DNA from: a virus
Lineage: Duplodnaviria; Caudoviricetes
Strand: one strand, 5' to 3'
Length of the DNA stretch: 64,000 bases
IMG/VR virus record: IMGVR_UViG_3300013947_000019
Span: 32,001-96,000 of that record
Part shown: positions 24,166-42,267 of the stretch, in pieces
Numbering within the stretch: the first letter of the stretch is position 1
Layout: the number at the start of each line of letters is the position of its first letter
Position numbers and translations under genes: made by a program
The notes under the pieces: model-generated
The model's input: only the letters and a program-made list of their open reading frames with translations
The model's database searches: none
Told to the model about the DNA's origin: nothing

Positions 24166-25014
24166 CTACATAAACATCCGGATGATTGGTAATATAAATC
24201 TAGTATAATTATATACTGGATTAATGATATCCATATCTTTCTCGCCTATCTCTAATAGGTTATATTCAAATCCAGCTATTTCATATACAGTTCGATAAAT
24301 ATTTTCTCCATTCAATTCTTTATAATAATAGTGAGGAAGATTTTTAGCTTTATAATCTCTCACAAATTGAATTAAGAACTGACGAAGTTCATCTCTCTGA
24401 TCCATAGATAAATACTTGAATACTTGTAGGAAGAATTGAATCATTCCTTTCTGATGATCTGGATCTTCTACTACCTCATCACGAATGCCTTTAATAGTAA
24501 TAGATTTATTTCTTTTATCATAATAGAATTCGATCTTATCGATATTCAGATATCCCATATAAGTATGCTTGGGTCTGAATTCAAAGGGACCGAATTTCGT
24601 ATATTTTAACTTTCTACCAATAATGAACACTGCATCATTTTTGATAGCAAGTACATCTTTGTCTTGAATATGATTTATTCGGAATAACTTTTCTTTAGCA
24701 GATTGAATACCATCAGATATTGCTTTATATATAGTATTCTTTTTGGACTGCTTTTCCCGACGAATCATTTTACCAATCGCTTCTTCTCGCGCTTGCTTAT
24801 TCAATCCCTCTAGCATAGTTAAAATTTTAGGATCAATAAGTTTAGATGCTCGTAAGGCAGATGTATTAGCAGAACGAATATCATACTCATAGATATGATC
24901 CACTACATACTGTACATCTGCAGTATAGTTGACTTTCTTATACAACTCAGAATAAGTTCTTTTGAGCTCTATAAAACCTTCAGAATTGCGAACCATATCT
25001 TCCATGAATATCAT
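24166..25014 (-). CDS. Family-B DNA polymerase palm-like protein (small or split)
   Basis: Motif A-like YEYDIRSA and motif C-like IKNDAVF, followed by ITIKGI; only 282 aa with no exonuclease domain. Confidence 0.6.
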   Translation of the reverse strand: MIFMEDMVRNSEGFIELKRTYSELYKKVNYTADVQYVVDHIYEYDIRSANTSALRASKLIDPKILTMLEGLNKQAREEAIGKMIRREKQSKKNTIYKAISDGIQSAKEKLFRINHIQDKDVLAIKNDAVFIIGRKLKYTKFGPFEFRPKHTYMGYLNIDKIEFYYDKRNKSITIKGIRDEVVEDPDHQKGMIQFFLQVFKYLSMDQRDELRQFLIQFVRDYKAKNLPHYYYKELNGENIYRTVYEIAGFEYNLLEIGEKDMDIINPVYNYTRFILPIIRMFM

Positions 25015-25053
25015 ACACCTCCTTACTATGAAAAATCATTTTATGAAAGAGAG

Positions 25054-25081
25054 GGGAGGGGACATCATCCCCTCCCTTTTT
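25054..25081. terminator. Terminator hairpin
   Basis: GGGAGGGGA-CATCA-TCCCCTCCC followed by TTTTT. Confidence 0.7.
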
Positions 25082-25084
25082 ACT

Positions 25085-25465
25085 CTCCCGATCAACCTAA
25101 TCATTTCCGGTAATGGCTATAATCAGACAGGGGCCCGAAATTCACTCTATGGAAGCGAGACCTCATTACACATCCGACCGTCACACCAAGGTTATTAGTT
25201 TTGGCGTGCACTCCTATGCACACTTTCGCTAATACACCTAAATGCTAATAGGTAATAGGAGTTACCTGAATAGCAAAGTAGCCTTACCGATAGTATCGAT
25301 TAAGCAGATCTATATAATAGACCTGGACGAGCCGATCTCGACCAGATCACAACAAGAGAAACCGAAACGGGTCCACGAATTGGAATCACCAGAGACTACC
25401 TGTTTATCAGGATTGGGTGAATATGCACCGTTTCGATAACTCATGTTGCCTGGAATGATATGAAC
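25085..25465 (-). ncRNA. Candidate structured RNA / long 3' UTR
   Basis: About 380 nt with no credible CDS, elevated GC and several stems (CGAAACGG/CCGTTTCG, GTGCA/TGCAC, CTGG/CCAG); follows a highly expressed gene and ends at a terminator. Confidence 0.4.
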
Positions 25466-26605
25466 TTACTTGGACTCCTCAGTGGTCTTCAGAGCCTTTG
25501 CCGCAGCAATGAAAGCCTTGGAGAAAGTATCCTCATAGTTCATATAGCCGATCATGGTAGTCATGATCTTGTTATACTCCTTGGAACCGATAGTCACATC
25601 GCACAGAACGGCACTGGTGTGAGCATAGATCATGGGGATGAAGTCAAAGTTCTTCTTCTTGGAGAAGTACTTCACAAACTTCTTCACCTTCATCTTGGGA
25701 GCCTTGCCCTTCTTATCATAACCGTTCTTCACGGTGGGCAGCTTCATATCAGTACCCATAGCAGTATTCAGGATCTCGGTGAAGGTATCATAAGCAGCCA
25801 CTGCCACCTTGTTCTTCTCCTTCAGAGAACCGCAGACCTTCTTCATCTGCTTCTTCTTCAGACCCTCAGTGATAGCGAAGTTGTCATTGGTATAAGCATC
25901 CAGCAGGTTCTTCAGCATGATGTGACGCTCATCCTTACGGATATGCAGCTCGCCTTCCTGCTGGGCAATATTGAACAGAGCAGCCTGACGCAGCTCGATA
26001 GCGAAGAAACCAAACAGGCGCTTCTTCAGCTTCATGCCCTTGCCGGAAACACGGACCTTATCATTAGCACGAATGAAGTCGGCAACACGACGAGCAACCT
26101 TCTTGCTCTTACCCTTACCGAACAGCTTCTTCAGAACCTTGGTATCAGTCACGATCTCGATACCGAAAGCATCAAACAGAGCAGCCAGATACTTGGTCAG
26201 GAACTTATTCTTCTTCTTAGTGATCTCATCAGTGGGATCATCCAGGACGATCACGATGATGTTAGGACCGTGCTTCTTGATGTTCTTGATCTCACGCTTG
26301 GTCAGCTTACGATCGGAGCTGATGATATTCACCAGCTGAGCCATCTCGATGCACAGGCCGTTGTTCTCCATGGAAGGAACCATCAGAGCCTTGCAGGCAC
26401 TCTTGATGACCTTCTTCTCCTTCAGGCTGCCATCCAGAACACCATTGATCTCGTCCTCATCGGGCAGAATGTTCAGCTTGGTCAGACTGACCTGCAGTTC
26501 AGCATCATCGATACCCTTGGTCTTACCTGCGGTAAATGCCGCAATATTCGTATCATACTTTGCAAAGATAGTCTTTGCCTTGGATGCGGTAGTTACGATA
26601 ATCAT
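25466..26605 (-). CDS. Abundant Lys-rich hypothetical protein
   Basis: 379 aa, strongly optimised codons (AAG/CTG/ATC), SD AAAGGAG. Confidence 0.8.
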   Translation of the reverse strand: MIIVTTASKAKTIFAKYDTNIAAFTAGKTKGIDDAELQVSLTKLNILPDEDEINGVLDGSLKEKKVIKSACKALMVPSMENNGLCIEMAQLVNIISSDRKLTKREIKNIKKHGPNIIVIVLDDPTDEITKKKNKFLTKYLAALFDAFGIEIVTDTKVLKKLFGKGKSKKVARRVADFIRANDKVRVSGKGMKLKKRLFGFFAIELRQAALFNIAQQEGELHIRKDERHIMLKNLLDAYTNDNFAITEGLKKKQMKKVCGSLKEKNKVAVAAYDTFTEILNTAMGTDMKLPTVKNGYDKKGKAPKMKVKKFVKYFSKKKNFDFIPMIYAHTSAVLCDVTIGSKEYNKIMTTMIGYMNYEDTFSKAFIAAAKALKTTEESK

Positions 26606-26664
26606 AATAGTATCTCCTTTTCTTTGATTATAATATAGTCTGTAGAATTTTCTTTTTCTACAAA

Positions 26665-28737
26665 TTATTCCGCGGGGTATACATCCTCATGGTCATTATC
26701 ATTCTCAAGATGATTCTCAATACGTTCTGCTTGTGCATCCAGTACTGCAGTCTCCATGAGCTTTTCCATAGTAGATGCAGGAATCGCCTTATAAGATGTA
26801 TGAGGATCATCTGCGAACGAAATATAGAGCGAGAGGCCATTGTTATCAAATGCCTCTCTGAAGTCCCCGGAAATCTCCATGAAAATACCCGGGAACAGCT
26901 GGGTATCACTCTCATCGCAAGTATCGTTTACAACACGATACCAGCAATGAGGTTCGGTCGGTCTAATGATATCATCAGACTCCCCTGTATTATCATTGTT
27001 AGTAATTTCTTTTTCTACATCAGGCTGATCAGGGATGACATAGAAAGCCTCACAAATATTTGTGAGAATCTCGGAAGCTCTGGGATCAGCAGAGTCCTTG
27101 ATTTTAGCGAGCATATCATATGCTCTTTCACCCATATCGAGAACATTGAGTTCTTCAGGGTTTTCATCGAGAACGGTGGGACTATCCTCAGTAACCTGAG
27201 TCTGAATATCACCCACTGAATCATTCAGTACCTTCTCAATAGAGTCAGATACAAATTTAACGAACCCCTGGTACATAGAAGCTTCCAAAGGATCGCTCGA
27301 ATGCTTCAAATGATCACACAATGCAAGGAAGTTTTTAACGTTCTCGTCTCCCTTGTCAATCTCCAGCTTGAATTGAGTGCTGTTGGTATTGGACTGGCCA
27401 CCCTGAGTAGCTTCTAAACTCTGGGTCTCACTTACATTAGACTTATCAGACTCCACGGTCGAATCTGTGCTAGGAGTGCCAGCAGGAACCACACTACAAT
27501 CAGCAAGATCCCCCACAGGATCAGTACCGGCCATTTGTGTGTCATCGTTATCCATCTCGCCAGGTTCAGAATTATCGAATGTAGGAAGCTCAACGTCGAC
27601 AAGGTTGTCATCTCCCTCGACTTCATCCTCAGATGTATTCTGATCCTCGATTAGACCATTAGTTTTCGGTTTCAGAACTGTGAACCCTTCAGCATCACGA
27701 TCGTCATCAGTGACCTGGGAGTTCATGCCTTCTTTCTGATCATTCAGATCAGATTCAATATCATCGTCGTCTTCATCTACATTGACAAAGACAGTACGAG
27801 GTTCACGTTCCTCTTCCTGATACCCGTTGAGACTACGGGCCTTGGACTCATACTGGTTCGTATGACAAATTGCAGCCAACTCAGCATTGGCCATGGCTTC
27901 ACGCTCTTCTGCGTTATAACCATCTCGATACAGTTCCAGCACTTTGGTTACCTCCTTTTTCGGACGCATTTCCAGCGTCATATATTTTGCACCACATTCA
28001 TTACAAATGAAATACTTAAAGTCTTTGGAGTACTTAAGTTTGTTTCCACAATACTTAGGTTCTCCAGTATGCTTATGTTCCCCAACTATTCTTTTACAAC
28101 GAGGAGGGAACTCTTTCATTTGACTCAGTGGATACAAATCAGATCCATCAATTATTTTGATCTCGCCATCACGAGTAACACCATAATTTAGTCTCATATC
28201 AGGAGACAGATCTGCGATAAGGAAGTACTTCGAAAGATCTGACAGGATACTGAGTATCTCTGGCATGAACATGTCCATCTGATACGGAGTCGGAAGTACC
28301 AGACGCTCCTGCACCGAAATCAATGCAGCAGGATCTCTCGAATAAACTCGGTTAAATTTACCGATACATTTAGATAATTGGAAATCGTTAAAATTATCAG
28401 CGATTCCGTTTTCGTCCAATGCAACTTTGAATACGACACCAGGATAATATGGGTGTGCCATCGTAAGAATATTTGTTCCAAGACCAACTGTCTCGAAACC
28501 AAGATCAGACCATTCTTTTTCGATGTATTCAGCTTTCTGCTGATTATCCGAACAACTGGTCATAATCGTCCGAATATCGTCATACATTTCTGGTGTAAAT
28601 AATTCAAGCCAATCTTGACTCAAATCAGGTTCTCCAAATCGTTCATAATTCTTTATCTGATCTGGAGTTAAAATATTACTATATTTATATCTGCCTCCTT
28701 TCTTTTTAAGTTTCTTTTTATTACCCATAAAGAACAC
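26665..28737 (-). CDS. Protein-kinase-like domain + zinc ribbon + long acidic tail
   Basis: GLGTN (Gly loop), VVFKVA (VAIK-like), IADL...NYG, IKIIDG (DFG-like); C..C/CNEC zinc ribbon; D/E-rich C-terminal half; early promoter upstream. Confidence 0.6.
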   Translation of the reverse strand: MFFMGNKKKLKKKGGRYKYSNILTPDQIKNYERFGEPDLSQDWLELFTPEMYDDIRTIMTSCSDNQQKAEYIEKEWSDLGFETVGLGTNILTMAHPYYPGVVFKVALDENGIADNFNDFQLSKCIGKFNRVYSRDPAALISVQERLVLPTPYQMDMFMPEILSILSDLSKYFLIADLSPDMRLNYGVTRDGEIKIIDGSDLYPLSQMKEFPPRCKRIVGEHKHTGEPKYCGNKLKYSKDFKYFICNECGAKYMTLEMRPKKEVTKVLELYRDGYNAEEREAMANAELAAICHTNQYESKARSLNGYQEEEREPRTVFVNVDEDDDDIESDLNDQKEGMNSQVTDDDRDAEGFTVLKPKTNGLIEDQNTSEDEVEGDDNLVDVELPTFDNSEPGEMDNDDTQMAGTDPVGDLADCSVVPAGTPSTDSTVESDKSNVSETQSLEATQGGQSNTNSTQFKLEIDKGDENVKNFLALCDHLKHSSDPLEASMYQGFVKFVSDSIEKVLNDSVGDIQTQVTEDSPTVLDENPEELNVLDMGERAYDMLAKIKDSADPRASEILTNICEAFYVIPDQPDVEKEITNNDNTGESDDIIRPTEPHCWYRVVNDTCDESDTQLFPGIFMEISGDFREAFDNNGLSLYISFADDPHTSYKAIPASTMEKLMETAVLDAQAERIENHLENDNDHEDVYPAE

Positions 28738-28760
28738 ACTCCTTATCGATTTCTATACAT

Positions 28761-28773
28761 ATAGTATATATCT
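28761..28773 (-). promoter_or_regulatory. Early promoter
   Basis: AGATATATACTAT on the minus strand. Confidence 0.6.
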
Positions 28774-28800
28774 CAAAAAGTTTTATTCAAAACAGGTAAG

Positions 28801-30294
28801 TTAATAATCTGGTAACTGATTATACTCGTCCCAATACTCTTTTGTAAACTTTGGTTTTGATACATGTCTTGGTTCAGTTGGCTCATTCAGGAACAAAGCA
28901 TCTTCCAAAGATCGTTCAGAATACACGGTGGTACCAGTACCAGTCTCACACTTGTAAATAGGTTTCTTCGCACCCGGATTTATAATACTAGCTGTTATAC
29001 CCTCCTCTTCATCAATTACTACAAATCCTTTATCGGTTATATCTCCTCCATGTTTTTCAAACCATTTTTTACGCGCTTCATATGTCTTCTTCTGATGAGC
29101 ATATTGTTTCTTGGCATGTTTCTCACGAATTTTAGCTCGCTCATATTCAGCGTACCATTGTTTGCGAACTCGATCTCGTACAAGTTTGGTATCTCCCATC
29201 CAACCATTTGCCATCTCTTCAGAGATCTGACCATCTTTTACAAGACCATCTAAAAGTTTCACAAAATCTTTCCGCTTCTCATCATATTTCTTTAACTGTT
29301 TTTGAAGCGCAGCTTTCATCTTCTTTTCGCTAACAAAAGATGCACCAGTTAAAGGATCATGAAGCATCATATTCTTACGCCAACCTTTATTCCTCTTATT
29401 GATCTGCTTCAGGAATACGATTCTTCTCATTCCCATAGCAGTCATATTCGGATACTTCTTGGCTTTCTTCTTGAATTTCTTAATTGGATTTTTATCACAC
29501 CAATCAGAAAATTCTTTCCAATATTCATCTGGAATATCGGGACACTTTACCGTATATGGATTGACATCATACTCTCTCCGATGACGTTCTGCCACTTCAA
29601 TACGCTTGAACTTTAAACCACCAACATCCTCCACTGTGGTAGCTTCATCCTCATATTTTGATTTCAAACGTTCATACATCTCTTTCGAAGAGATTGTCTT
29701 ATTAGTATTATGTGTCATATACGTAGACCAATACATGGCTGCTTCATAACACACTTCTACCAACTCATCCAATTTACCTGCATATTCATAATATAACTTA
29801 TCAGCTTCAGATCTCTTCAAGAAAGATTCCAGATACCAATAGGCAATATCATATTTAACTTGCTGTTGCTGTTTATATTCAGCTTTCTTTCTCTTCTTAC
29901 GAAGCTTTCTGATTTTCTTAGATTCTTTGGCCTCCTTGGGAAGATGAATCGTTGTGATCTCAGGAACATATTTCTTTTTCCACTCAGATTCATCTGTGAT
30001 CTTCTTAGACATCTTTTTGATATCTTTATCAGAGTAATCTAAGAATTCATCAGGTGGTTCTGGACCAGGGCCTAACCAACGATCAGTCCAGGGATCTCGA
30101 TTAAACATCTTCACATAGTTTTCTTCTGTTCCTGCCAAGTCTGCTCTTTTACGAGCTGCTTGACGTTTCGCTTCATAAAACTTGTCTTCTGCTTCAGTAG
30201 TTTCTTCCTCTGGAATACCAAACTCTTTTCTGAGTTCCATAATCTTTTCATGTGCACTCTTACGCTTTCTGGGCTCATCACTCATCATCTTCAC
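28801..30294 (-). CDS. Highly charged (Lys/Glu-rich) hypothetical protein
   Basis: 497 aa; overlaps the 3' end of the RNase H gene (translational coupling). Confidence 0.75.
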   Translation of the reverse strand: MKMMSDEPRKRKSAHEKIMELRKEFGIPEEETTEAEDKFYEAKRQAARKRADLAGTEENYVKMFNRDPWTDRWLGPGPEPPDEFLDYSDKDIKKMSKKITDESEWKKKYVPEITTIHLPKEAKESKKIRKLRKKRKKAEYKQQQQVKYDIAYWYLESFLKRSEADKLYYEYAGKLDELVEVCYEAAMYWSTYMTHNTNKTISSKEMYERLKSKYEDEATTVEDVGGLKFKRIEVAERHRREYDVNPYTVKCPDIPDEYWKEFSDWCDKNPIKKFKKKAKKYPNMTAMGMRRIVFLKQINKRNKGWRKNMMLHDPLTGASFVSEKKMKAALQKQLKKYDEKRKDFVKLLDGLVKDGQISEEMANGWMGDTKLVRDRVRKQWYAEYERAKIREKHAKKQYAHQKKTYEARKKWFEKHGGDITDKGFVVIDEEEGITASIINPGAKKPIYKCETGTGTTVYSERSLEDALFLNEPTEPRHVSKPKFTKEYWDEYNQLPDY

Positions 30295-30910
30295 CTCCTC
30301 GTCTTGGAATCATTGTAATAAAACCTCTTCTGTTACGTAACCATACATTGCGAACTTCTGTTGCTTTCTCATCAGCCCAAGCATTCATCTTCATAATAAG
30401 TTTAGCCTGTGCATTCGATACATTTACTCCAGCATTGATAATTTTATATTTCATCTTTGTCACATCATTCTTATCTTTAATATTCTTATGAGAATTAATG
30501 TGCACATACTTAATTGTGAGATTTAGATCTCTTTCTAAGTTTTGAATCTTTCGATATATTTCCTGATTCTTAACTCTTCCACCTTGGGATTTCTTCCAAT
30601 TGAATGGATTAGAAGTATTCCAATACTGTTTTGACCATATCGTCAAAGCTTGTACTGTTAATTTTGAATCGGATATCACTAAGACATTCGTTGGTTTTGC
30701 TTTAGTATATTTTCCAAGCATTTGAAGTGCTTTATAGATAGCATATCCTTCACAATAATTAATACCTTTACCATTCAAAGCTTTTCCATGAATGGTATAT
30801 TTCATCGTCTTGCAATTTAAAATAACAAATGCATAGGCTCCAGGAACTTCACCATTTCTTTCGTCCCGGAATACTCCAGCATCTGTTGCAATAATATATT
30901 CTGGAACCAT
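30278..30910 (-). CDS. rnhA: Ribonuclease HI
   Basis: TDAG (D10), CEGYAI (E48), SDS (D70), VKNQEI, NSH, NAWADEKA (D134); all catalytic positions present. Confidence 0.9.
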   Translation of the reverse strand: MVPEYIIATDAGVFRDERNGEVPGAYAFVILNCKTMKYTIHGKALNGKGINYCEGYAIYKALQMLGKYTKAKPTNVLVISDSKLTVQALTIWSKQYWNTSNPFNWKKSQGGRVKNQEIYRKIQNLERDLNLTIKYVHINSHKNIKDKNDVTKMKYKIINAGVNVSNAQAKLIMKMNAWADEKATEVRNVWLRNRRGFITMIPRRGGEDDE

Positions 30911-30938
30911 AATGAAGTTCCTCCTTTCATTCGTATAT

Positions 30939-30951
30939 ATAATATATATTT
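30939..30951 (-). promoter_or_regulatory. Early promoter
   Basis: Exact AAATATATATTAT on the minus strand upstream of the RNase H SD. Confidence 0.7.
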
Positions 30952-30961
30952 CAAAAAAGAA

Positions 30962-30990
30962 TGTGGAGAATCCCTAACGGATCCTCCACA
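30962..30990 (-). terminator. Terminator hairpin
   Basis: TGTGGAGAATCC-CTAAC-GGATCCTCCACA flanked by A/T runs. Confidence 0.65.
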
Positions 30991-30994
30991 CTTT

Positions 30995-31222
30995 TTATTT
31001 CACATTAAATTGCTGGAATAAATTTTCCAACCGATGAGCAAGAATAGTTACATCTGTTCGCATTTTGATACGAAGATTTGTAAGTTGTCCTGACTCTTTT
31101 GCATCTTCCATATAGTCAATATTATCCATTAATATATGCGCATATTTCTTACATTCATAAATTTCATTTCGTAATGAAGTCAATTTTCTATCTGTTACAA
31201 TTTTCATATCATTTACCCTCAT
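30995..31222 (-). CDS. Hypothetical protein
   Basis: 75 aa, coupled to the upstream gene. Confidence 0.55.
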   Translation of the reverse strand: MRVNDMKIVTDRKLTSLRNEIYECKKYAHILMDNIDYMEDAKESGQLTNLRIKMRTDVTILAHRLENLFQQFNVK

Positions 31223-31982
31223 TAAGAGACATGATCAAGTCATAGAGTTTTGTTTGAGAAATACCATCTCCATGCTTTCCGCCCTCTTCTTGATCAATAT
31301 ATACTAAATGTCGTCTCAGGTTATCTGGGATTTCATTCTGAATAATTGTATATCCCTTTGTCATTTCCTGAAGATTTCTGAATTTAATCTTCAATGTATC
31401 GCTGATATATTCACCATAGATATCAAAGAATGCTTCAGGATCTCCATATAATACATTTAATGGAATAAATAAATCATTCTCTTCAGAGTGAATATAACTG
31501 TGACAGACTTCACATAAAGGATATAATCCTACTAAACCAAGATAGTGATCATACATTACTTCTTTAGCAATGGCTGATTGCTTTAAAGATTCACCACGTT
31601 TTAATCGTTTATTGATCACAATATAAATGATATCCTCAATTGTAAGTGGAGTATGATGAATTTCGATTGTAAACCCATCATACTTCTTAATATTTGGATG
31701 AACTCCACAGTGATACATCATACATTTATCTTTCAAGAAAGCAATCAGTTGTTTGTATTCATAACTATTGCGAATCATAAACTTCGTTCTGACTACAAAC
31801 TTGTGGAGTTCTTTTGGATCATCTTCAAACATACTCAAGTCATCTACATACTCAGAAGGAGATAATGATACTTGAGCAGTTTCATATTCTTTCTTTTCTT
31901 TATATGTCTCTTTTGGTTGTCCTATATCTATCGTATTAGGAGGTAGAGACTTACCTTTCTTATGAACAGATGGCATCCTCAT
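31209..31982 (-). CDS. HNH-like protein
   Basis: IEIHHTPLTIEDI...HYLGLVGLYPLCEVCHSYIH; resembles 22535..23167. Confidence 0.6.
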   Translation of the reverse strand: MRMPSVHKKGKSLPPNTIDIGQPKETYKEKKEYETAQVSLSPSEYVDDLSMFEDDPKELHKFVVRTKFMIRNSYEYKQLIAFLKDKCMMYHCGVHPNIKKYDGFTIEIHHTPLTIEDIIYIVINKRLKRGESLKQSAIAKEVMYDHYLGLVGLYPLCEVCHSYIHSEENDLFIPLNVLYGDPEAFFDIYGEYISDTLKIKFRNLQEMTKGYTIIQNEIPDNLRRHLVYIDQEEGGKHGDGISQTKLYDLIMSLNEGK

Positions 31983-32007
31983 ATTGAGATCTGCCTCCTT
32001 CCATATA

Positions 32008-32418
32008 TTAATAATCGCTCAGATCATAATCTGCGTAGTAACCGGAAATCTCATAATATTTCTTACGTTCTTTATCATCCATCTTCTCTAAGACAATTTT
32101 CTCGTAATCATATAACCAATCCCAGAGTTGATCTAAAGCTTCTGCATCTCTGGTAAATCCGTGACTTTCCAGATCGCGCTTGATATGCATAATACGACCT
32201 TGAATGGCTTTCATTTTCAGATCAGGATTCTTAGATTTCCAGGGAATATCTCTGGCTCCACCTCCAGGATATTTGGTGTCTTCATCTTTACGGAATCGAT
32301 CAGTATTAATCTTACCTTTTACTTTTTCAGCTACTTTGCTATACTTCTTAGGTTTAGGTGCATTATTATCCACCAGTGGATTAAACACAACATCTTCGAA
32401 TAAACTAAATAAACCCAT
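32008..32418 (-). CDS. Hypothetical protein
   Basis: ORF track gives 32008..32454; SD GGAGG supports ATG 32418 (MGLFSLFED...). Confidence 0.65.
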   Translation of the reverse strand: MGLFSLFEDVVFNPLVDNNAPKPKKYSKVAEKVKGKINTDRFRKDEDTKYPGGGARDIPWKSKNPDLKMKAIQGRIMHIKRDLESHGFTRDAEALDQLWDWLYDYEKIVLEKMDDKERKKYYEISGYYADYDLSDY

Positions 32419-32464
32419 AATATGATCCTCCACTATCATATAAATTAAAAACACTTTAACACGC

Positions 32465-32650
32465 TAAAGTGCGCGGGGCGGGGCCGGGGGCAGGTTTCCT
32501 GCATTAGACAAGACGTTCGCGCAATATCGCGCTCACTCAAGCCCGCCATTTCTAATGAAATTTTGACCAGGTGAAACATTGATTGGCGGGCGGGCACTTT
32601 TCCGGTAACTACGTTGTTGACAAGGAACGCACTTCGTGCTTTACTGAGGG
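32465..32650. other. GC-rich structured island
   Basis: GGGGCGGGGCCGGGGGCAGG run; stems AAAGTGC/GCACTTT and GCCCGCCA/TGGCGGGC; embedded in very AT-rich DNA. Confidence 0.55.
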
Positions 32651-33166: not shown

Positions 33167-33461
33167 ATCAGTAAAATACCTTTCTAATAAGTATAAAACT
33201 GTCTAGTAATATAGTAGAAAAATACAAGAAAAATAATGATATATTTCTTCTAATTTTTCTTAATTTTTTGAAAGAATTCGAAAATTTTATTTGAGAATTC
33301 TCATTAAAATGCATTTTCCAACCCGAGAAGGGTTTCGAAAATGCCGAGGGCTAGATAACATCACGTTAGCTAGACCAACATTATTCACTATATCTTCTGT
33401 ATATATAAATAGTAATACATAGAATCTATTTAAAATTGTTAGTAAAAAGAGATTAAATTTG

Positions 33462-33474
33462 AGATATATATTAT
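33462..33474 (+). promoter_or_regulatory. Early promoter
   Basis: AGATATATATTAT upstream of SD AAAGGAGG. Confidence 0.65.
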
Positions 33475-33505
33475 AGAAATAGTACATAGAAAGGAGGTAT
33501 TTATT

Positions 33506-34216
33506 ATGCAGAAAAATCATTGGTATCATTCGACAAAAGATAAAGTTGAGTTAGATCTTACTCAACACGAAATTATTAAGTTACATGAACTTTGTGATTA
33601 TATCATTGAAGTTTGTGATGAGTATATAAAGTATCTTTATAAAAATTATACTGATTATATTCATATGGGTGAAATAGCTGAAACGACATATGTAGATACT
33701 ACACCAGGATGGAAGCCATACTATAAATATCATATTAAAAAACATGAGGATTTATTACGTATATATCTATATGAAATTGCTAATGAGTTTCCTCATGCTT
33801 TTGAAGCTTCTAAATATAATGGTTTTAGTTATACCAATTTTTATGATGCGATGAATAAGTATTGTAAAAAGCTTTACTTGCTGCGTATTCATAAAAAGTC
33901 AAGTGATCGATTACTAGTTATAACTCCAGCACATCATGTATCATTATCCAGAATCAATGATCGTGGTTCAATCACAATACCTGGATTTAAGAAAAATATA
34001 AAACTGCGGAGTAAATTTAAGAATGTGCTTGGTGATGATCGTGTAATGCATTATTTTATCAATATCACAAAACCATCAAGTTCAAAGCTTATGAAAGCTT
34101 CATTGAATCTTGGTTTTGGTACAAAAAATAAACCATATTTTGATATCGATGGATTTATTAATTTACGAAAGAAAAAGAAAGGAGAGAAATCCAATGGCTG
34201 GAAAAAAGAACGATAA
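33506..34216 (+). CDS. Hypothetical early protein
   Basis: 236 aa, strong SD; C-terminal FDIDGFINLRK motif. Confidence 0.75.
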   Translation: MQKNHWYHSTKDKVELDLTQHEIIKLHELCDYIIEVCDEYIKYLYKNYTDYIHMGEIAETTYVDTTPGWKPYYKYHIKKHEDLLRIYLYEIANEFPHAFEASKYNGFSYTNFYDAMNKYCKKLYLLRIHKKSSDRLLVITPAHHVSLSRINDRGSITIPGFKKNIKLRSKFKNVLGDDRVMHYFINITKPSSSKLMKASLNLGFGTKNKPYFDIDGFINLRKKKKGEKSNGWKKER

Positions 34217-34898
34217 TAAACTTCGTGGTAAACGAGATGAAGAAGGTTTCATTCAGCTGATTCCGAAGAGTGAAAATAAAACTGAAAAAGTTAAATCAGT
34301 AAAAAAGAGTGATGGGAACCCCTTTAAAATGGGGTCTTACAAATATCGATTGTTCAAATCTCTTCAAAAACACCGTACCCCAAAGTGGGTACTCGGGTTC
34401 CACCATGAAAAGGCAGAAAACGTCATTTTAGGGGTAGATAAGAAAGATAAACCTAAGACGATTATTACTTCTTATCCGGTTGGTAAGAAAGAGCTGAATG
34501 ATGCTGGAATTCAGAAGTCAGAAGGTCTTTCTGTATTGATTAATTGTGGTATGGGAACGTATCAAAAGATCCCATATTCAGTCTATAAGAAGTTCAAGAA
34601 AATCGAAAAGATGATCATTACAGTTAGATTAGAAACCTGGTCGGATGGAGATGATGAAGGAGAAGAAGTTTATGCCCATCAGTACTTCATTGATTCTATT
34701 GGAGAGCTGATGAGATTCTATCTATATCTGAGACATTTAGATGAGTATGTAAATGAACTTACTTCTTCTTTGTTATGGTATAATCGAATCAAGTTTAAGA
34801 TCGATACGATGGTAGATAAAGGAAAAGATAAACCAGAATATTTTAAAGGCAACTTTAATGAGTTTCTGGAAAAGTATGGATTTAAGGAGTTAATTTAA
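34194..34898 (+). CDS. Basic hypothetical early protein
   Basis: ORF track gives 34110..34898; SD AAAGGAG supports ATG 34194 (MAGKK...); N-terminal RDEEGFIQLIPK motif. Confidence 0.75.
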   Translation: MAGKKNDNKLRGKRDEEGFIQLIPKSENKTEKVKSVKKSDGNPFKMGSYKYRLFKSLQKHRTPKWVLGFHHEKAENVILGVDKKDKPKTIITSYPVGKKELNDAGIQKSEGLSVLINCGMGTYQKIPYSVYKKFKKIEKMIITVRLETWSDGDDEGEEVYAHQYFIDSIGELMRFYLYLRHLDEYVNELTSSLLWYNRIKFKIDTMVDKGKDKPEYFKGNFNEFLEKYGFKELI

Positions 34899-34900
34899 AT

Positions 34901-35068
34901 ATGACAAAAGATAGACTTTTTGAGATCCTGGATGATCTCACCAATAAGATGGTGGAAGATACAGATGTAAATACAGTCATAACGATCTTAGTGGATCAAT
35001 GTGACTGTACATATGATGAGTTGGAAGAACTCGGTTTCAATGAAGATGATATCGATGATGTACTGTGA
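34901..35068 (+). CDS. Small acidic protein (55 aa; below the ORF-track cutoff)
   Basis: SD AAGGAG; MTKDRLFEILDDLTNK...ELEELGFNEDDIDDVL*. Confidence 0.65.
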   Translation: MTKDRLFEILDDLTNKMVEDTDVNTVITILVDQCDCTYDELEELGFNEDDIDDVL

Positions 35069-35387
35069 TAATAAGAAAGTTGTTTCTACCAAAAATCCAG
35101 AACCGGATGAGTACGGATACTATAGAGCAACGGATATATCTACATTCTCTGATAAAGTTGAAGAGCTTATGAATGAAAGAGATGGTGTATCTACAATAGA
35201 TCATCCATATACAATGGATGATGTAAGAGCTGTAATCAGAATGCAATCTTATCAGAACTCTCCTAATGAGAGATGGAATGGTACTATGAAGTATCGCGGT
35301 CCAGATAAAATTGAATCTAATCATAAGGCTAAGAAGAAAAAGAAATTCAAATTAGTCAAGAAGTCAAAACAAAGAAATCGGAAGTAA
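35055..35387 (+). CDS. Hypothetical protein with basic tail
   Basis: ORF track gives 35001..35387; ATG 35055/35058 overlaps the preceding stop. Confidence 0.6.
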   Translation: MMYCDNKKVVSTKNPEPDEYGYYRATDISTFSDKVEELMNERDGVSTIDHPYTMDDVRAVIRMQSYQNSPNERWNGTMKYRGPDKIESNHKAKKKKKFKLVKKSKQRNRK

Positions 35388-35415
35388 ATAAGCTTCCGAT
35401 TTTGGCTCATCTTTC

Positions 35416-35428
35416 AAATATATATTAT
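35416..35428 (+). promoter_or_regulatory. Early promoter
   Basis: Exact AAATATATATTAT, followed by a leader hairpin (GAGTTAG...CTAACTC). Confidence 0.7.
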
Positions 35429-35508
35429 ATAAGTGATAGAGAGTTAGATGATATGCTGAGATCATAACTAACTCACAAATAATTTAAATTCAAAAGGAGA
35501 TATCTACA

Positions 35509-36141
35509 ATGAGCAGATCTGAGGCAAACAAGAAGAGAGCAAAGGCAATCGATACCAAGTATGAAACTACTGTCAAGGAACCCGAAACTGAAGTGAAGGA
35601 AGAGACCAAGAAGGAAAAGAAACCTTTCTTCAAGTTCAAGAGTACTCCTGCCGAGCGTATGACCAAGTTGGCAACGCTCAATGCACGCACCTATATCTTC
35701 CTGAAGGGTATGGGTATCGTGAACAAGAAGTTGAGCGCCAAGGTCAATGGCGAAGTTCAGCCGAATGGAAAGCCCTGGTTCAATGACAACAAGGTCACTG
35801 AAATCAAGGAAGAAGAGAAGGCCTCTCCGATCCTGAATACGGTTCCTACTACCACTGAGGTGGTCAAGAAGGATACCCAGAAGAAGGATCAGGATGAGAA
35901 GAAAGAAACCAAGAAGACAGAGACTACTCAGCAGGACTCTGTTAAGTCTAAGGAGCAGCCCGCCAAGGAAGAGAAGAAGGATAAGGAACCCAAGGTCGTT
36001 GAGGTGAAGGAAGATGAGATCGATTATCTCGTCGAACCTGAGACCGAGATGGAGAAGGTTCTGAAGCCCAAGAAGAATTACCGCAAGAATGGTAAGAAGG
36101 CCAGAAAGGCCGCAATGGAGGCTGCGAAGAAGTCTGCCTGA
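35509..36141 (+). CDS. Abundant Lys/Glu-rich, probably disordered early protein
   Basis: 210 aa, optimised codons, SD AAAGGAG. Confidence 0.8.
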   Translation: MSRSEANKKRAKAIDTKYETTVKEPETEVKEETKKEKKPFFKFKSTPAERMTKLATLNARTYIFLKGMGIVNKKLSAKVNGEVQPNGKPWFNDNKVTEIKEEEKASPILNTVPTTTEVVKKDTQKKDQDEKKETKKTETTQQDSVKSKEQPAKEEKKDKEPKVVEVKEDEIDYLVEPETEMEKVLKPKKNYRKNGKKARKAAMEAAKKSA

Positions 36142-36168
36142 TTGGGAGAGACAGGTAGACAAAAGAGT

Positions 36169-36193
36169 TGGGAGGGTCGCAATGACCCTCCCA
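36169..36193. terminator. Bidirectional terminator
   Basis: TGGGAGGGTC-GCAAT-GACCCTCCCA between convergent genes. Confidence 0.8.
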
Positions 36194-36214
36194 TTCTCTC
36201 TCATTATTTATTTT

Positions 36215-36447
36215 TTATTTATTAAGTTCCTTTTCAATTAGTGGTAAGTATTTATTTGCAAGCTGTCGTTTCTTTTCAATAACAATCTTGTTCATACCAC
36301 CAACTTTAATAATATCTAAGCACATACGCTTATAGATACCAATAGCTGATAGACAAGCGTCAATCTTATATACATGATCAGTATCTTTCGTGTATGGTGC
36401 AAGATCCGAAGGAATCACATTAGATACAATACCTTTTAATGCACTAA
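36215..36447 (-). CDS. RNA polymerase beta subunit, exon 2
   Basis: Splicing gives GDKISY-F-SALKGIVSNVIP...KRM, equivalent to RpoB GDKMAGRHGNKGVIS...SRM. Confidence 0.88.
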
Positions 36448-36573
36448 CTAATATCTTCAGATAGGGTCGCTAATCCTATCCCGCAGCATTACCTGCAGCT
36501 TACGGTTTTCCCGTAATGTAGAGACTATATTTTCAAGATATATCTTGTCTGGTCTTTCGGAATCGCTTGATTC

Positions 36574-37359
36574 CTAATGCTTATGAACTAAAATAATGAA
36601 ACCATTTTCATCTCTTGGTTCATATGCAATAGTCGTTGAACCTTTAACTTCTTCTAGTATAGGACGATATAGTTTTCCTTGGCGCATCTTTTTAATGACT
36701 TGTATTAATTTCTTCTCATCGTATTTTGGAAAATATTTAGCAATTTCCCGGGATGTGAAAACACCATATTGAATTAAACTTGCAATTGATAATAAGTCTT
36801 TTCGCTTATATGTTTTCATTCGAATTTCATCCACATCCCATTTATAATCCTTGCTTATATTATTCCATGTTTTTCTGTAAAATATTCTATCAAGAATACT
36901 ATCAATATTTTTAATATCATAAAGATCAAGTTTCTTTTCAATTTTTCGTATATTGTATCCCTGTTCAAATAACTCACATACTTTACGTACTTGATCATTT
37001 GTTAGTATTGAAAATTGATGATCTTCGCCAGTTCTATACAAATCATTAATAGATGCACGACATTTATTTTCATCACCAGTAACATACTCAAGATTATACA
37101 AAGCAGGGTTTAGTTTATTACAGTCTATATGATCCACTTCTAGATCAGAGTCATATGTAAAAGCTGCTAAAACTAAACGATGTAATGCATATTTTTTAAG
37201 TTTTCCAGATTTAGATACTAGAGTGACTCGAATATAACCTTTTTCATTTTTAGGATTACATCCATTTAATATTCGTCCATTTACAAGAGCAATTTTTCCT
37301 TCATCTGATATTAAATATCTTGTAGGATCAATGTCTCTATATACTAAGGGTATCCACAT
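36574..37359 (-). CDS. Intron-encoded HNH homing endonuclease (NUMOD4-like N-terminus)
   Basis: YLISDEG...GYIRV...LHRLVLAAF...VDHIDCNKLNPALYNLEYVT..EN; SD AAGGAGG. Confidence 0.92.
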   Translation of the reverse strand: MWIPLVYRDIDPTRYLISDEGKIALVNGRILNGCNPKNEKGYIRVTLVSKSGKLKKYALHRLVLAAFTYDSDLEVDHIDCNKLNPALYNLEYVTGDENKCRASINDLYRTGEDHQFSILTNDQVRKVCELFEQGYNIRKIEKKLDLYDIKNIDSILDRIFYRKTWNNISKDYKWDVDEIRMKTYKRKDLLSIASLIQYGVFTSREIAKYFPKYDEKKLIQVIKKMRQGKLYRPILEEVKGSTTIAYEPRDENGFIILVHKH

Positions 37360-37384
37360 GATTAAACTGCCTCCTTAAAATATT

Positions 37385-37396
37385 TAATCATATGTT
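37385..37396 (-). promoter_or_regulatory. Late-type promoter inside the RNAP intron
   Basis: AACATATGATTA on the minus strand just upstream of the HNH SD. Confidence 0.55.
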
Positions 37397-37623
37397 ATCC
37401 CCTTAGTTTATTAAAAGAAGTTACTTGGCTGCGGGTTAACCATATATCTCAATATTTTTTACGATACATCCAGACTCTCTCTGGATCCACTAACTATGTC
37501 ACCATGCTAGTTTCGTATATTGAGCTTTAGGTATCCAAGAATTAATTCTCAGATTGGTCTTATTTTAGCCCAGACCATTATTCCCGTCAATTAACCAGAT
37601 TACGTACCTAGGGCTTTATTTTC

Positions 37624-40600
37624 AGTACGAGATTTTGTCGCCCGGGGCAATAACGTCCTCATACTCAATATAGAAGTCGATCATTACGCCATCGGGTAGT
37701 TTAACACCCTTCACTTTGCCCTGTCCATCGGGTTCAAGTCTCTCAGCAGGTTTTGTAATCGTATTCGCATCATAGAGATTCTCATACTTTTCAATAACCT
37801 TTTCGCGCTTTCTATTTGCACTTGAGAAACCTTCAACAATCTTGCGAAGAGTGGGAGTCATTTCATTTGGATCAGCTGTATAATAAATACGAATATCTGC
37901 AATCTTTCCACTATACTTACTGACCACTGGTGCTGTTCCTGCAATCACTTCATCTTCATCTCCGGCTTCAGCAGCCATTGTCTGAAGCATCATAGAAGTG
38001 AATTCATCTTGTGTATCATCAAAGCTGATTAAAATGCTGTTTGTTGCAACATTATCACCAACTTTAACCATAGATTTAATATTAGCATACTTAGACAAGA
38101 TTACTCGTTTCTGCATAGTAATCTTGGTAGCCATTCTATGAGCCAGATCATCAGTGATATAACAAGAGTCTTCAAAAACACCACCATTGGTTTCTACTGC
38201 AATACGAGCCATAGTACCCATAGATGCCAAGTAATCACCAAACATATCGTTTGTATTGATATATTTAGGATCGTATGCTAATAATGTAGAGGCTTTAAAT
38301 TCAGAACCAATCTGCAGATCATTAGCAACGAACATCTGATTCATTACATAGAAACCACCATCCGTATTCTTTGCAGGTCTCTTAGAAAGATCAATATCAT
38401 CATATGTACCATCTACATATTGTACAATCATGATATCATCTTTAATATCAATAACCTTACCATCCTTCTTAGCACTACGTGCATAATCAGAGGAAAGATA
38501 AGGCATCAGACGTTCAGCATCATAAGAGACAGGGCAAGAACAACTGGATGCAACAGGGACCACATGCTTAGATTGAGATAGAGACATGGCAACACGCTCA
38601 ATATCAGCAGACTCAGGACCAAAAGCTTGCATTAACTCACCAGGAGTAGCAAGCTCGGTTGCTGTATAGTCTTCTTTATCGACAGTGATAAAACCACGTG
38701 CATCATCGATATTTGCATTGGTAGACATATGACGACCAATACCAACTTTACCAGAAGGAGTAGAGTTCATACCGACAACGCCCTTCATCGAAGGATGATA
38801 TGCACGTTTCTCAATCGTGAAAGAGTGCTCTTCATTCATACCAGAAGGACCCTTCAGTTTAATCAGTCGATCATTCTCCATCTCAAGTACAATATTTAAT
38901 TCAGAATGAGGGTCAACGATATCGGAAGTCAGTAAGTACTTGATAATAGCATTCTCGGGGATAGAGAACTTATCAGTCTTACCAAGTCGATATTTACCCC
39001 AAGCTTCAGCCAGTTCACAATATAACTGTGCCATAATGATTTCATTACTACGAATACGTGCATTATGATAATCAGAGTCAATCTGATAATGGTTATCAGC
39101 TAAGACACCATTACAATACAACATCAGTCGAGTGAAATCAGTTGGCATCTTCAGTCTGACCAGAACTTCCATTGTAATAGGATCAATGAAGCAGTAATAG
39201 AAGTTTCTCAGTGCATCAGCAAGAGTCTTACTATTAAACATGGAATCAAAGATTTGTACATATGCATCATATGTATCCATATCATAGAAGGAATAGTTCT
39301 TAGTCGGGAAAGTACTTAAACCATTCAGAAGCAACGAGTTTTCAAAAGGATATCGATCATAGATTAAATATCCATCATCAAACTGAACTAATCCCTGATT
39401 GTTAGGATCATAATCAGTAGGTTTCTTCTGTAAGAAATCAAACTTGATCTTAGCCTTCTGAAGAACTGCAGTTAAACCACCAGGATCAGCAGCAGCACAA
39501 ACAAGTACCAGAGGAACATCCATCTTCATAACTCGAGAACGAGAATAGATAAACTTAGAACTGCTGGAAAGAGAATCAAGTTCTTTCTTTAAACCAGAAT
39601 CATACCACCCAATTACCTCAGTAATGAATTCAGAGAGCTCACCATAATCATTACCCTTTTCATCATACACTTTATTAGTACGACCAGATAAGCAGAATTT
39701 AGTTCCTCCAGAAGCAGGACCCTTATTACCGGATCGTACTGCTAAAGGAATTAGAGATTCGGGATCTTCTTTATGCTTTGTATAAACAGGCTTAAACTCC
39801 TTCATATCGATGACCATATTAGCATCATCTACTATGAAGAAAATCTTCGTATGATCCTTACCTGTACCAATTGTAGCCTTCGTTACGGCTGTACCAATTT
39901 CATCATACTCCATAGTAGTCAGGTAATTCTTATTTGGAATCGTACAGTCACCTTTGGTTACAATAATACCAGGAGGACAACTGGGACCACCAAGAAGTTT
40001 CTTGATACGAGTAATACGAGGAGACAGATTAGAACCATATCGAGAAGAAATGATCTTCTTATAAGAAGTAACTGCCTGACAAGAATCTGGAGAGATCTTA
40101 GTAACAGGATAAGGAAGCTTCTGATGAGAGATATTCATCTTCTGATCATTCAGATAGAGATACCGATCCTCATACATCTTAGGAAGCAGGAATGAGAACT
40201 TATGTCTCTTACGAGTCTCATCTTCAAAAGAGACAGTATATCGAATCATACGATCAGTAGCCGTAGATACATCTTCTACTTCAATATCTTTATTAATATA
40301 CATAGCCGGATGCACATGGCTAAAATGCATCAGAATATTAACCAGATCATTCATCATTAAGTTTTCATTATATGCAGCTTCAAACTCTTGAGAACGAACA
40401 GTTTTCATATCATCATTGATTGTATGAATAGGAGGTTTTGTAACTGGAATAGCAGTCTTCTTTTCGGCTTCCAGAATTGTACGGAGAGGCACATTACCGA
40501 TATTAGTTTCTTTATACTTCTCCTTCATAATCTGGTCACGTTTATAAGAAGCTACCGTTTTACCAGTTGCTTTAGCTCCCAGGATTACATCGACATCTTC

Positions 40601-41779
40601 GGGATCTTCAATCACAACATCAGGCATTTCAAATTCACCCATGTCGACATCCATCTCGAATTCATCATCAATAATATCTTCACCAGAAGGTTCATCGATT
40701 TCTTCTACTTCTCTTTCTTCATCGAAATCATCAATCTTCTCTTTCTTTTGACCAAGTAAAGTTGGCTCTTCTTCAACCTTAGTCGGCTTTTCTGTCTTAG
40801 TGATATTTTTACGAACCACTTTCTTGACTTCAGCTTTCTTTTCAGGAGCCACAGTATCAGGATCCGTATTCATATCAGTTAAGATCTTTTCAGTAGCCAG
40901 ATCTTCCTTAGACTCCTCTTCGGCCTTCTTCATCTTTTGATCAATGATCTTATCGGCTTTGAGTTCTTCTGGAGTGGAAGTCTCCTTTGTTCTCTTAGCT
41001 CGCATCATAAACTCATGAAGAGTTTTAGTCATATCAAAATCTTCTGAAAGTTTGGTAGTATCAATAGGTAATACATATACACCATGTACGAAATATAGTT
41101 TATGAAATCTCGTATATACAGCAGGATCACATAATTGACGAGCCAATTGCTGACCAAACTGAGTAGCGTTTGGTCTAAAAATCAAATTGATATTATTATA
41201 GGAAGCTGTAGTAAAATACAGATCCATAGGAACAATCACATGACATTCATAATCGCCAAGATAGTTTTCCACACTACCAACCTGAGCAGATTTATAAACT
41301 CTCGTATATTCAGAGATAACCTCTCTTGTCTTAACAGACATCAACCTGGTATCTCTTGGATTATTCAGAATTGCTTGTGAAGCATAATTCGTTTCAACTA
41401 ATACATTGAAATTCTTCAGAGGTCTCATCTTAGCATTTGCTAAATAAGATGTGATACCATCGATATTCTTAAGGTTCTTCGTTTTATTATTATTGAGTAA
41501 TGCAGTTACAGACCCATCTTCATCCGGATGAATGATCTGAAGTCCAGCCCCTCTGAAATTATGACTCCACTTTTTATCAATAAAATATTTCCATAAGTTA
41601 CGGAAAAGAAGTGTTGGATTTTTATCCAACCATTTTAATTCATCTTCAATAGAAGGAGCAAGTACCATAAAGGCCATGTTCTTCTTTCGAGCTTTCGGGT
41701 TTTCGGGCATAATGACCGGTGGTCTGGTCTTATATGTGATGAAAGGCTCAAGTGCCTGGAGCTTAATCATCTTGATCAC
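37624..41779 (-). CDS. Phage multisubunit RNA polymerase beta subunit, exon 1 (probably virion RNAP)
   Basis: YLYLNDQKMNISHQ, KGPSGM...RAYHPS..G....STP.G.VG, RVAMSLSQSKH, FEDS, GDK motifs matching RpoB; long N-terminal extension with an acidic linker. Confidence 0.92.
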
Positions 41780-41921
41780 CGTTCCTTTCTATTTAAATTC
41801 TACATATTTACCAACGTGATAATAATAGAACCCATAATATAATAGGGTTAAGCGCTATGTCTGTATATTATATCAGTGTTCAGATCATGAAAAGAGACTA
41901 TTTATTTTCTACACTTTTACA

Positions 41922-41933
41922 GACATTACAATA
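41922..41933 (+). promoter_or_regulatory. Late promoter
   Basis: GACATTACAATA. Confidence 0.55.
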
Positions 41934-41940
41934 ATTTATC

Positions 41941-42267
41941 ATGCAGATAAAAGGAGTTTTTGATATGAGTGTCGATATTAAAGCGATGATTATGAAGAAG
42001 CAAAATGACAAGTTGAAGTCTTCAAAACTTGTTATGAAGGATATCAATCGAGAGTTGATTACAGCATTGATTGCATTACCGGTTTATGGTAAAGAAGTGC
42101 GTGATGAGGAGATTTTAACCATTATTATTAATGGCGGTATCGAACCTCCTCGTATGGATAAAATTCGTTCTGACTTCAGTAAGAGGTTGGATAAACAGGA
42201 AGTTAAGAAGGTCAAAGGTGAATATAGAGATAATGACGGCTTCCTGGTTCTCGTTCCCCGAGCATAA
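41941..42267 (+). CDS. Small hypothetical protein
   Basis: SD AAGGAG supports ATG 41965; C-terminal RDNDGFLVLVPR motif. Confidence 0.7.
   Translation: MQIKGVFDMSVDIKAMIMKKQNDKLKSSKLVMKDINRELITALIALPVYGKEVRDEEILTIIINGGIEPPRMDKIRSDFSKRLDKQEVKKVKGEYRDNDGFLVLVPRA

Follow-up and report, generated by a model that had tools for sequence, protein, structure and literature searches.

Address peptides shared by unlike proteins are already known for clamps, microcompartments, encapsulins and eukaryotic nuclei, and in phage T4 the internal proteins are loaded by means of a shared terminal peptide. In the nucleus of phiKZ-like phages, import through PicA/Imp1 admits replication and transcription proteins together with an intron homing endonuclease, and excludes metabolic and structural proteins (PMC11087766, PMC11620839); no conserved signal sequence was found in cargo of this type, and surface patches were indicated (PMC11087766). 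Here we analyze a 12-residue peptide, hereafter the tag, that recurs on unrelated proteins of an uncultured jumbo phage related to AR9. It was noticed in a stretch of 64,000 nucleotides (the window; IMG/VR record IMGVR_UViG_3300013947_000019, Caudoviricetes), for which a prediction made from the letters alone listed seven proteins sharing the motif and proposed that it was a docking peptide. The seven peptides do translate at the positions and on the strands given for them, within real open reading frames (ORFs). The motif is not limited to seven proteins or to the window, since the whole genome holds 24 tags on 21 unrelated proteins. We propose that the tag is a localisation label that brings proteins to phage DNA, a reading to which we give a probability of roughly 45%.

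The source is a single viral contig of 259,863 bp (36.9% GC), the window being its bases 32001–96000. Protein searches place it as a far relative of the jumbo phages AR9/PBS1, Staphylococcus S6/Machias, Listeria LPJP1 and Yersinia phiR1-37, a group with which it has about 50 genes in common at ~27% identity. The phages of this group encode two multisubunit RNA polymerases. For comparison we used G001, a 256-kb IMG/VR contig with a mean protein identity of 82% (94% for the query protein); G002, a complete contig of 287,660 bp and 51% GC with 112 genes in common at a mean identity of 47%; and the metagenomic loci L118–L121, obtained from protein look-ups. Scans with Pfam or PHROGs covered about 90 of the 286 ORFs; the remainder were assessed via AR9 homology. 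The gene caller was crude: it missed the ORF that holds the tag copy at 34139–34174, and the ORF it placed at 25460..26638 on the plus strand is the shadow of a real minus-strand gene.

The consensus of 23 copies is R-D-x-D/E-G-F-I-x-L-x-P-K, in which G and F are invariant and Gln does not occur. When the copies were aligned into a profile and proteomes were scored with it in bits, the scores of this phage were two-peaked, with 23 matches at 12.6–25 bits in 20 proteins and almost nothing at 5–12 bits; the copy at 34139–34174 completes the genome-wide count. The regular expression that came with the original prediction matches 14 times in the six-frame translation of the genome and 13 times in the called proteome, against an analytic expectation of 0.003 and no match in any of 200 residue-shuffled proteomes, so that the proposed comparison with shuffled proteomes came out in its favour. 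An unbiased count of every pattern with four fixed positions in eight residues gives the same picture, with GF..L.P and D..GF..L in top rank in this phage and D..GF..L at rank 2 in G002. By the profile G001 has 20 tags and G002 has 13–16. No comparable pattern was found by the unbiased count in AR9, Machias or phiR1-37, where the best profile scores were below 7 bits, and the tag is absent from LPJP1.

The copies are not repeats of one stretch of DNA. Identical residues are encoded by the same codon in 46% of cases, as the earlier observation that codons differ would have it, and the mean nucleotide identity between copies is 56%, which indicates that both the signal and the selection on it lie at the protein level. 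Run against the PDB, the tag profile returned chance matches only. Scanning IMG/VR with a back-translated DNA pattern recovered, as members of the tag clade, only the phage's own fragment, G001 and G002, and other isolated matches fit chance. In NCBI, two homologous contigs (89 kb and 249.6 kb) have been assigned to metagenome-assembled genomes of Muribaculaceae and Ruminococcus flavefaciens; these are probably mis-binned phage genomes, and they hint at a gut or rumen habitat. Separately, a pattern over-represented in LPJP1 (FQDxVxW...) was considered as a tag and rejected, as it belongs to a family of 23-residue tandem-repeat paralogues. About ten such paralogous genes, with the repeat W-x-Y-I-S-x-x-Q-K-L-S-E-E-F-I-E-K-F-Q-D-K-V, lie at 20.4–37.9 kb of that genome (MZ422438.1).

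The tag sits on parts that have been added to its carriers and that homologues in the AR9 group lack. Of 23 tags, 20 are no more than 60 residues from a terminus, where random placement would give 9.8; the other three are internal. In all seven carriers that have homologues in the AR9 group, the tag is beyond the region aligned by BLAST. Relative to AR9, the beta-N subunit of the non-virion RNA polymerase is longer by ~107 aa at the C-terminus, the SF2 helicase by 45 aa at the N-terminus and the PC4-like protein by ~60 aa; the ligase has gained an N-terminal stretch and DnaB a C-terminal tail. A comparison of this phage with G002 gives 55% identity over the 12 tag positions and 30% over the 20-residue flanks on each side, which is the conservation in orthologues with diverging flanks that the original prediction called for, and a relative at ~60% identity retains four of the window's tags. 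Lying outside folded domains and conserved while its flanks diverge, the tag answers to the strict definition of a short linear motif.

An AF2 model of the polymerase beta-N subunit, built with 61 diverse sequences (mean pLDDT 73.7), shows each of its three tags as an isolated hairpin held by a two-residue beta-bridge (pLDDT 56–75) in a flexible tail, with the Arg at position -4 bridging the Ile at +2. Thus, on the model, the tag is an exposed small hairpin and not the buried core strand that would have spoken against a docking peptide. Homologues show how far this hairpin can be reduced. GyrA carries a full tag in G002, but in this phage only P-E-F-I-T-L-K-P follows its start; among 120 helicase homologues, 48 have the full hairpin and 31 a bare strand right after the Met, and remnants such as M-E-G-L-I-P-K also occur. 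The minimal element, as these sequences show, is the second strand. Of 120 metagenomic homologues of the polymerase beta-N subunit (54–100% identity), 116 have 2–4 tags. Many SF2 helicase homologues in relatives are 650–890 aa long, with LAGLIDADG/Hom_end intein domains.

What the tag is attached to was established from Pfam, PHROGs and AR9 annotation, and every annotated carrier is a nucleic-acid protein. The replication and repair carriers are a DnaB-like helicase, the SF2 helicase, an NAD-dependent ligase, RNase H and GyrA. Three copies sit on one subunit of the non-virion RNA polymerase, beta-N. There are in addition the PC4-like DNA-binding protein, an Ant/Bro-type protein, the reverse transcriptase (RT; two copies) and the bAvd-like protein of a diversity-generating retroelement, four HNH endonucleases from two families, and eight proteins without a family. 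In a rough tally of our own, 14 of 39 annotated nucleic-acid proteins are tagged as against none of 30 structural, lytic or metabolic ones (Fisher p = 1e-4), and the remark that the tag is missing from structural proteins is thereby upheld. Annotated proteins without a tag include NrdD, polyphosphate kinase, dCMP and dCTP deaminases, endolysin, protease, portal, sheath, virion proteins and the chaperonin.

Some of these carriers belong to selfish elements. The retroelement lies on the minus strand at genome positions 144893–147122 (L005:8893-11122), and both its RT (RVT_1, phrog_1423) and its bAvd-like protein end in the tag; a 357-aa clade-specific gene that adjoins it may be the variable target. 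GyrB is split in two (356 and 437 aa) by an untagged HNH gene (L001:9668-13164, genome coordinates), and a tagged HNH gene lies past the second piece. The presence of the tag on HNH genes of two families, the full and partial forms in GyrA and the range from hairpin to bare strand in the helicases indicate that it has been gained independently more than once.

That all annotated carriers act on nucleic acid might suggest that the hairpin itself binds DNA or RNA, much as an AT-hook does, with no protein receptor involved. Its flanks are often rich in Lys and Arg, and a similar stretch is present in a transcription-regulator-like protein of an unrelated 42-kb phage. However, the best-conserved polar residues of the tag are acidic (D at -3, D/E at -1), and these together with the invariant G, F and L are the signature of a hydrophobic contact between proteins. 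Gyrase, helicase and ligase moreover bind DNA already, and the motif is limited to one clade. We therefore hold direct contact with nucleic acid to be very unlikely. The 42-kb contig, G005, is from the same metagenome as G001, and the protein (L111:14440-14877, 145 aa, weak match to phrog_36) contains NRDIEGFIKLIPKK internally at 21.6 bits. This copy may be chance, an element of the fold, or a tag borrowed by a smaller phage.

The cargo also bears on whether the tag might route proteins into the prohead for injection with the DNA, as the T4 capsid-targeting sequence does. Packaging of a virion RNA polymerase is a trait of the jumbo phages in this group, and the T4 precedent shows that a shared peptide can serve for such loading. 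As a proxy for virion content we took the AR9 homologues of the carriers, and neither DnaB (g007), the ligase (g095), the non-virion polymerase (g105), the helicase (g156), the PC4-like protein (g093) nor g239 is annotated as a virion protein, in an annotation that does mark the proteins of the AR9 particle. The subunits of the virion polymerase, for their part, lack a full tag, and the tag is found at both termini and in linkers. Capsid loading is in our judgment extremely improbable.

The window itself contains seven full copies. The first, RNSEGFIELKRT (24955..24990, minus strand), forms residues 9–20 of a 282-aa protein (24166..25014), the homologue of AR9 g239 and without known function; the tag is kept in G002 as RDSEGFIILRRR and in a ~60% relative as RDANGFISLKR, and homology to the AR9 group begins past it, at residue 20–30. 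The second, RDAEGFTVLKPK (27664..27699, minus strand), is an internal copy in an acidic linker (residues 347–358) of a 690-aa protein (26665..28737), and is kept as RDSEGFFVLRPR in G002 and LDDEGFMMLKPK in L121. The names 'PolB-palm' and 'kinase-like' that these two proteins had been given found no backing in Pfam, PHROGs or PDB sequence searches. The third, RNRRGFITMIPR (30302..30337, minus strand), is near the C-terminus of RNase H (30278..30910), at residues 192–203, the Pfam RNase_H domain spanning residues 5–148. It is specific to this phage and G001 (the 82–94% relative) and absent from the orthologues in G002 and L121, which points to a recent gain, or to loss elsewhere.

Two further copies lie on the plus strand in neighbouring genes without a family. 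Near the C-terminus of the 236-aa protein 33506..34216 is FDIDGFINLRKK (34139..34174), and its orthologue in L121 terminates with FDKEGFYQLLEK; residues 14–25 of the 234-aa protein 34194..34898 are RDEEGFIQLIPK (34233..34268; 23.8 bits), for which G002 has YRDSDGFYTLIKR and L121 has RDEDGFITLKR. On the minus strand, RDENGFIILVHK (36580..36615) is the extreme C-terminus of an HNH homing endonuclease (36574..37359; HNH_3 / phrog_59) that is flanked by exons of the gene for virion RNA polymerase beta; its counterpart in G001 is only 45% identical, yet has the C-terminal RDEEGFIRMVP. The seventh copy, RDNDGFLVLVPR (42226..42261, plus strand, 20.9 bits), is the extreme C-terminus of a 108-aa protein without a family (41941..42267).

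Two weaker stretches are of uncertain status. The first is NEDGFVLRR (56337..56363, plus strand), internal in the 133-aa protein 56175..56576, which had been proposed as a weaker copy. Its conservation in the G002 orthologue as SDGFVLRR is in keeping with that proposal, but it scores 5.8 bits and is probably inside a fold. The second, AFMVLAPS (41651..41674, minus strand; residues 36–43 of the 1385-aa virion RNA polymerase beta-like protein 37622..41779), is a possible half tag that fits the second half of the motif only (F-x-x-L-x-P); it is identical in G002 and may be part of the polymerase fold.

A change at the invariant aromatic position connects the copies to one another. In three distinct genomes (L118, L119 and L120; GC 41–47%) G-Y stands in every one of the 12 tags seen, which are spread over two or three proteins per genome; the tags of this phage, G001 and G002 all read G-F. 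Within single proteins the aromatic residues also go together: among 120 homologues of the polymerase subunit, 114 are all-F (FFF in 106, FF in 6, FFFF in 2), four are all-Y and two are mixed. That numerous codons should have changed separately and always the same way suggests that the tags are under a common constraint, for example a single binding pocket, and these sequence patterns suggest that one shared reader serves all the tags.

A single reader of any sort would accommodate this concerted change, including one that acts on the fate of the tagged proteins and not on their place in the cell: the tag could serve as a degron read by a protease or adaptor, could mark clients of the GroEL-like chaperonin of the phage, or could be a site on which a modifying enzyme acts. 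Terminal, exposed hydrophobic strands with charged flanks are typical of degrons and chaperone sites, and a GroEL homologue is encoded at genome positions 129564–131492, where it matches AR9 g228. The G-F-I-x-L hairpin has what we take to be a resemblance to the GroES mobile loop and to the 'strongly binding peptide' of GroEL. Against a chaperonin label, the chaperonin is also present in AR9, LPJP1 and phiR1-37, all of which are tagless, and the structural proteins, which are the usual clients of phage chaperonins, are untagged. Three tandem copies on a stable core enzyme would be odd for a degron, and the G-F tags offer no conserved Ser, Thr or Tyr to a modifying enzyme. No enzyme gene was noticed to co-occur specifically with the tags, though this was not a systematic screen. 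Taken together, we find a role of this kind unlikely.

The preferred reading, a localisation label, fits best with the list of cargo and with the independent capture of the tag by selfish elements. We suggest that a clade of AR9-related jumbo phages has placed a portable address, with a hydrophobic strand core F/Y-I-x-L-x-P-K/R and usually an R-D-x-D/E-G cap that would fold it into an exposed beta-hairpin, on flexible N- or C-terminal extensions of proteins that work on the genome. One common receptor, probably encoded by the phage, would read the address and would concentrate or admit tagged proteins at the site of phage DNA replication and transcription; possible forms of it are the gate of a chimallin-independent compartment or the scaffold of a replication factory. 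In multi-subunit machines one tagged subunit might carry its partners, as beta-N would for the non-virion polymerase, GyrA for gyrase and DnaB for the helicase-primase. Selfish elements that need the same access, namely the homing endonucleases and the retroelement with its RT and Avd, would have gained the tag independently.

A bolder form of this proposal would make the tag a linear 'nuclear localisation signal' that licenses the machines of replication, transcription and repair into a chimallin-free DNA compartment, and that homing endonucleases and the retroelement have captured. The F-to-Y change would then be a changed specificity of the gate, which could exclude the proteins of a co-infecting rival. 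We regard this form as doubtful.

Several observations weigh against a localisation label. Many DNA proteins are untagged, among them SbcC, SbcD, a RecD-like helicase, UvsX, primase and the main PolB pieces, as well as GyrB, the other polymerase subunits, an exonuclease, an invertase and two HNH genes. Several of these are members of complexes with one tagged subunit; a strict rule of no access without a tag would still need piggy-backing or further routes of entry. It is also possible that the G-Y genomes form a single lineage, and the concerted change might then be one historical event. No receptor was found. Chimallin (phrog_4795), whose family matched phiKZ gp54 at 1.8e-232, had no match in this phage, G001, G002 or AR9, and PicA/Imp1 (phrog_3141), which matched phiKZ gp69, had none in the tag-bearing genomes. 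PBS1-type phages lack chimallin (bioRxiv 10.1101/2023.02.24.529968), and chimallin-less jumbo phages, including AR9-like ones, are unlikely to build a protein nucleus (PMC13282480). With neither protein detectable and the literature of this opinion, a compartment is purely conjectural. A tubulin-like gene, a possible hint of a positioned compartment, is present in this phage and G001 and was not detectable in G002 or the AR9 group. This gene, of the tubulin/FtsZ family, lies on the minus strand at L001:1-543 and runs off the start of the contig (Pfam Tubulin, 34.1 bits against a cut-off of 33); as it occurs only in this phage and G001, it was rejected as the common partner of the tags.

Untagged DNA proteins need no special account if the tag is instead a peptide of the clamp-binding type, which tethers replication, repair and transcription proteins to a ring or another processivity hub that is already on the DNA, either the host beta clamp or an undetected phage clamp. 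The terminal position, the basic flanks and the several copies on one client would all agree with such a toolbelt, and among the carriers are classic clients of clamps, namely ligase, RNase H, a polymerase-associated protein and helicases. The tagged RNA polymerase is compatible with it too, given that late transcription in T4 is coupled to the clamp. On the other hand, gyrase, DnaB, a single-strand binder, homing endonucleases, RT/Avd and an Ant-like protein would be unusual clients. The tag shares no consensus with the clamp-binding sequences, be it QL[SD]LF, QLxLxL, Qxx[LIM]xx[FY][FY] or the T4 tail S-L-D-F-L-F/Y. Matches to DNA_pol3_beta (PF00712), the gp45-type DNA_PPF (PF02916) or PCNA (PF00705) were sought in this phage, G001 and G002, and none was found. 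The tag is kept over a range of 37–51% GC, and the F-to-Y change fits a co-evolving phage receptor better than the highly conserved pocket of a host clamp. A clamp toolbelt thus seems to us improbable.

The same results bear on the hubs named in the original prediction, which had offered a clamp, a single-strand binder, RNA polymerase or a replication compartment. The non-virion polymerase and the PC4-like single-strand binder are themselves tagged, which makes them clients and not the hub, and with no clamp gene detectable in three tag-bearing genomes and no match to the clamp consensus the clamp fares no better. The underlying idea of a docking peptide has stood up in part. Enrichment, conservation, placement on extensions, the predicted hairpin, the cargo and the F-to-Y change all describe a transferable terminal peptide that marks unlike proteins, but no partner has been identified, and docking as such is what we infer from these properties.

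Other proteins were considered as the reader or as its shell. No microcompartment or encapsulin shell was annotated among the ~90 proteins scanned, although no search was aimed at these shell families. A 653-aa clade-specific protein suspected of being a shell was rejected when it proved to be polyphosphate kinase. The gene (L006:10985-12946, minus strand) encodes a complete polyphosphate kinase 1 with four PPK domains at E = 5e-65; G002 has it at 58% identity and the AR9 group lacks it, and it is an unusual auxiliary gene for a phage. The phrog_12252 paralogues 31209..31982 and 22535..23167 were rejected as clamps, having an HH...CxxC...H motif and no look of a clamp; they are core in AR9-like phages, their function is unknown, and the motif suggests a zinc or HNH-like site.

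Two untagged, clade-specific proteins are candidates for the receptor by their position only. The first is a 379-aa basic protein (25466..26605, minus strand), encoded between two tagged genes and specific to the tag clade. Its AF2 model is confident (pLDDT 90, pTM 0.87) and has no convincing match in the PDB (best Foldseek E = 0.1, best VIA-align Z = 5.2); a faint resemblance to clamp-loader delta subunits in the Foldseek list was not borne out. When its complex with the tagged polymerase tail was predicted the score was 0.00, a result that gives no verdict and is evidence neither way. The second is a 497-aa protein (28801–30294, minus strand) with 22% Lys+Arg and 18% Asp+Glu and no family, 45% identical in G002. 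Its gene overlaps the tagged RNase H gene by 17 nt, and the protein contains the tag-like stretch D-K-G-F-V-V-I-D.

If there is indeed one receptor, the sequence alone would define which proteins a jumbo phage wants at its genome, and the tag would be a 12-residue handle with which to send any protein there or to block its access. It would also point to an unseen organiser of phage replication in a large clade. The F-to-Y change offers a computational way to that receptor, through residues that covary with it. In the literature searched we found no paper describing the motif, and no report of a phage that puts one linear peptide on its whole DNA/RNA toolkit, down to its own RNA polymerase, gyrase, helicase, ligase, homing endonucleases and a retroelement.

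Of the systems with which the tag can be compared, clamp-binding peptides (the PIP box read by PCNA, QL[SD]LF read by the beta clamp, and the gp43, gp33 and gp55 tails read by T4 gp45) are like it in being terminal or linker peptides on unlike DNA enzymes, with a hydrophobic or aromatic anchor and often basic flanks, and they have one reading hub. The tag differs in its unrelated sequence, its predicted beta-hairpin and its broader clients. Microcompartment and encapsulin peptides likewise put one short terminal peptide, on a flexible linker, on unrelated enzymes, which are thereby directed into or onto one protein compartment, and there too a tagged subunit can carry partners. In those systems, however, the peptide is an amphipathic helix or an extended G-S-L-type tail, and a known shell protein binds it, whereas the tag is modelled as a hairpin and not a helix, has the DNA/RNA machinery as its cargo and has no known shell. 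Import through PicA/Imp1 follows the same cargo logic, but the tag is a linear 12-mer in flexible tails, in a clade without detectable chimallin or PicA. The T4 capsid-targeting sequence is, like the tag, a phage-specific terminal peptide shared by unlike proteins, but it is N-terminal only, is cleaved and has virion cargo, whereas the tag is found at both termini and the AR9 homologues of its cargo are non-virion. The eukaryotic nuclear localisation signal, like the tag, is linear and transferable; unrelated nuclear proteins have it, often in more than one copy, and so do selfish elements that must reach the genome. That signal is basic, unstructured and read by importin, whereas the tag is hydrophobic and acidic, with its invariant G-F/Y.

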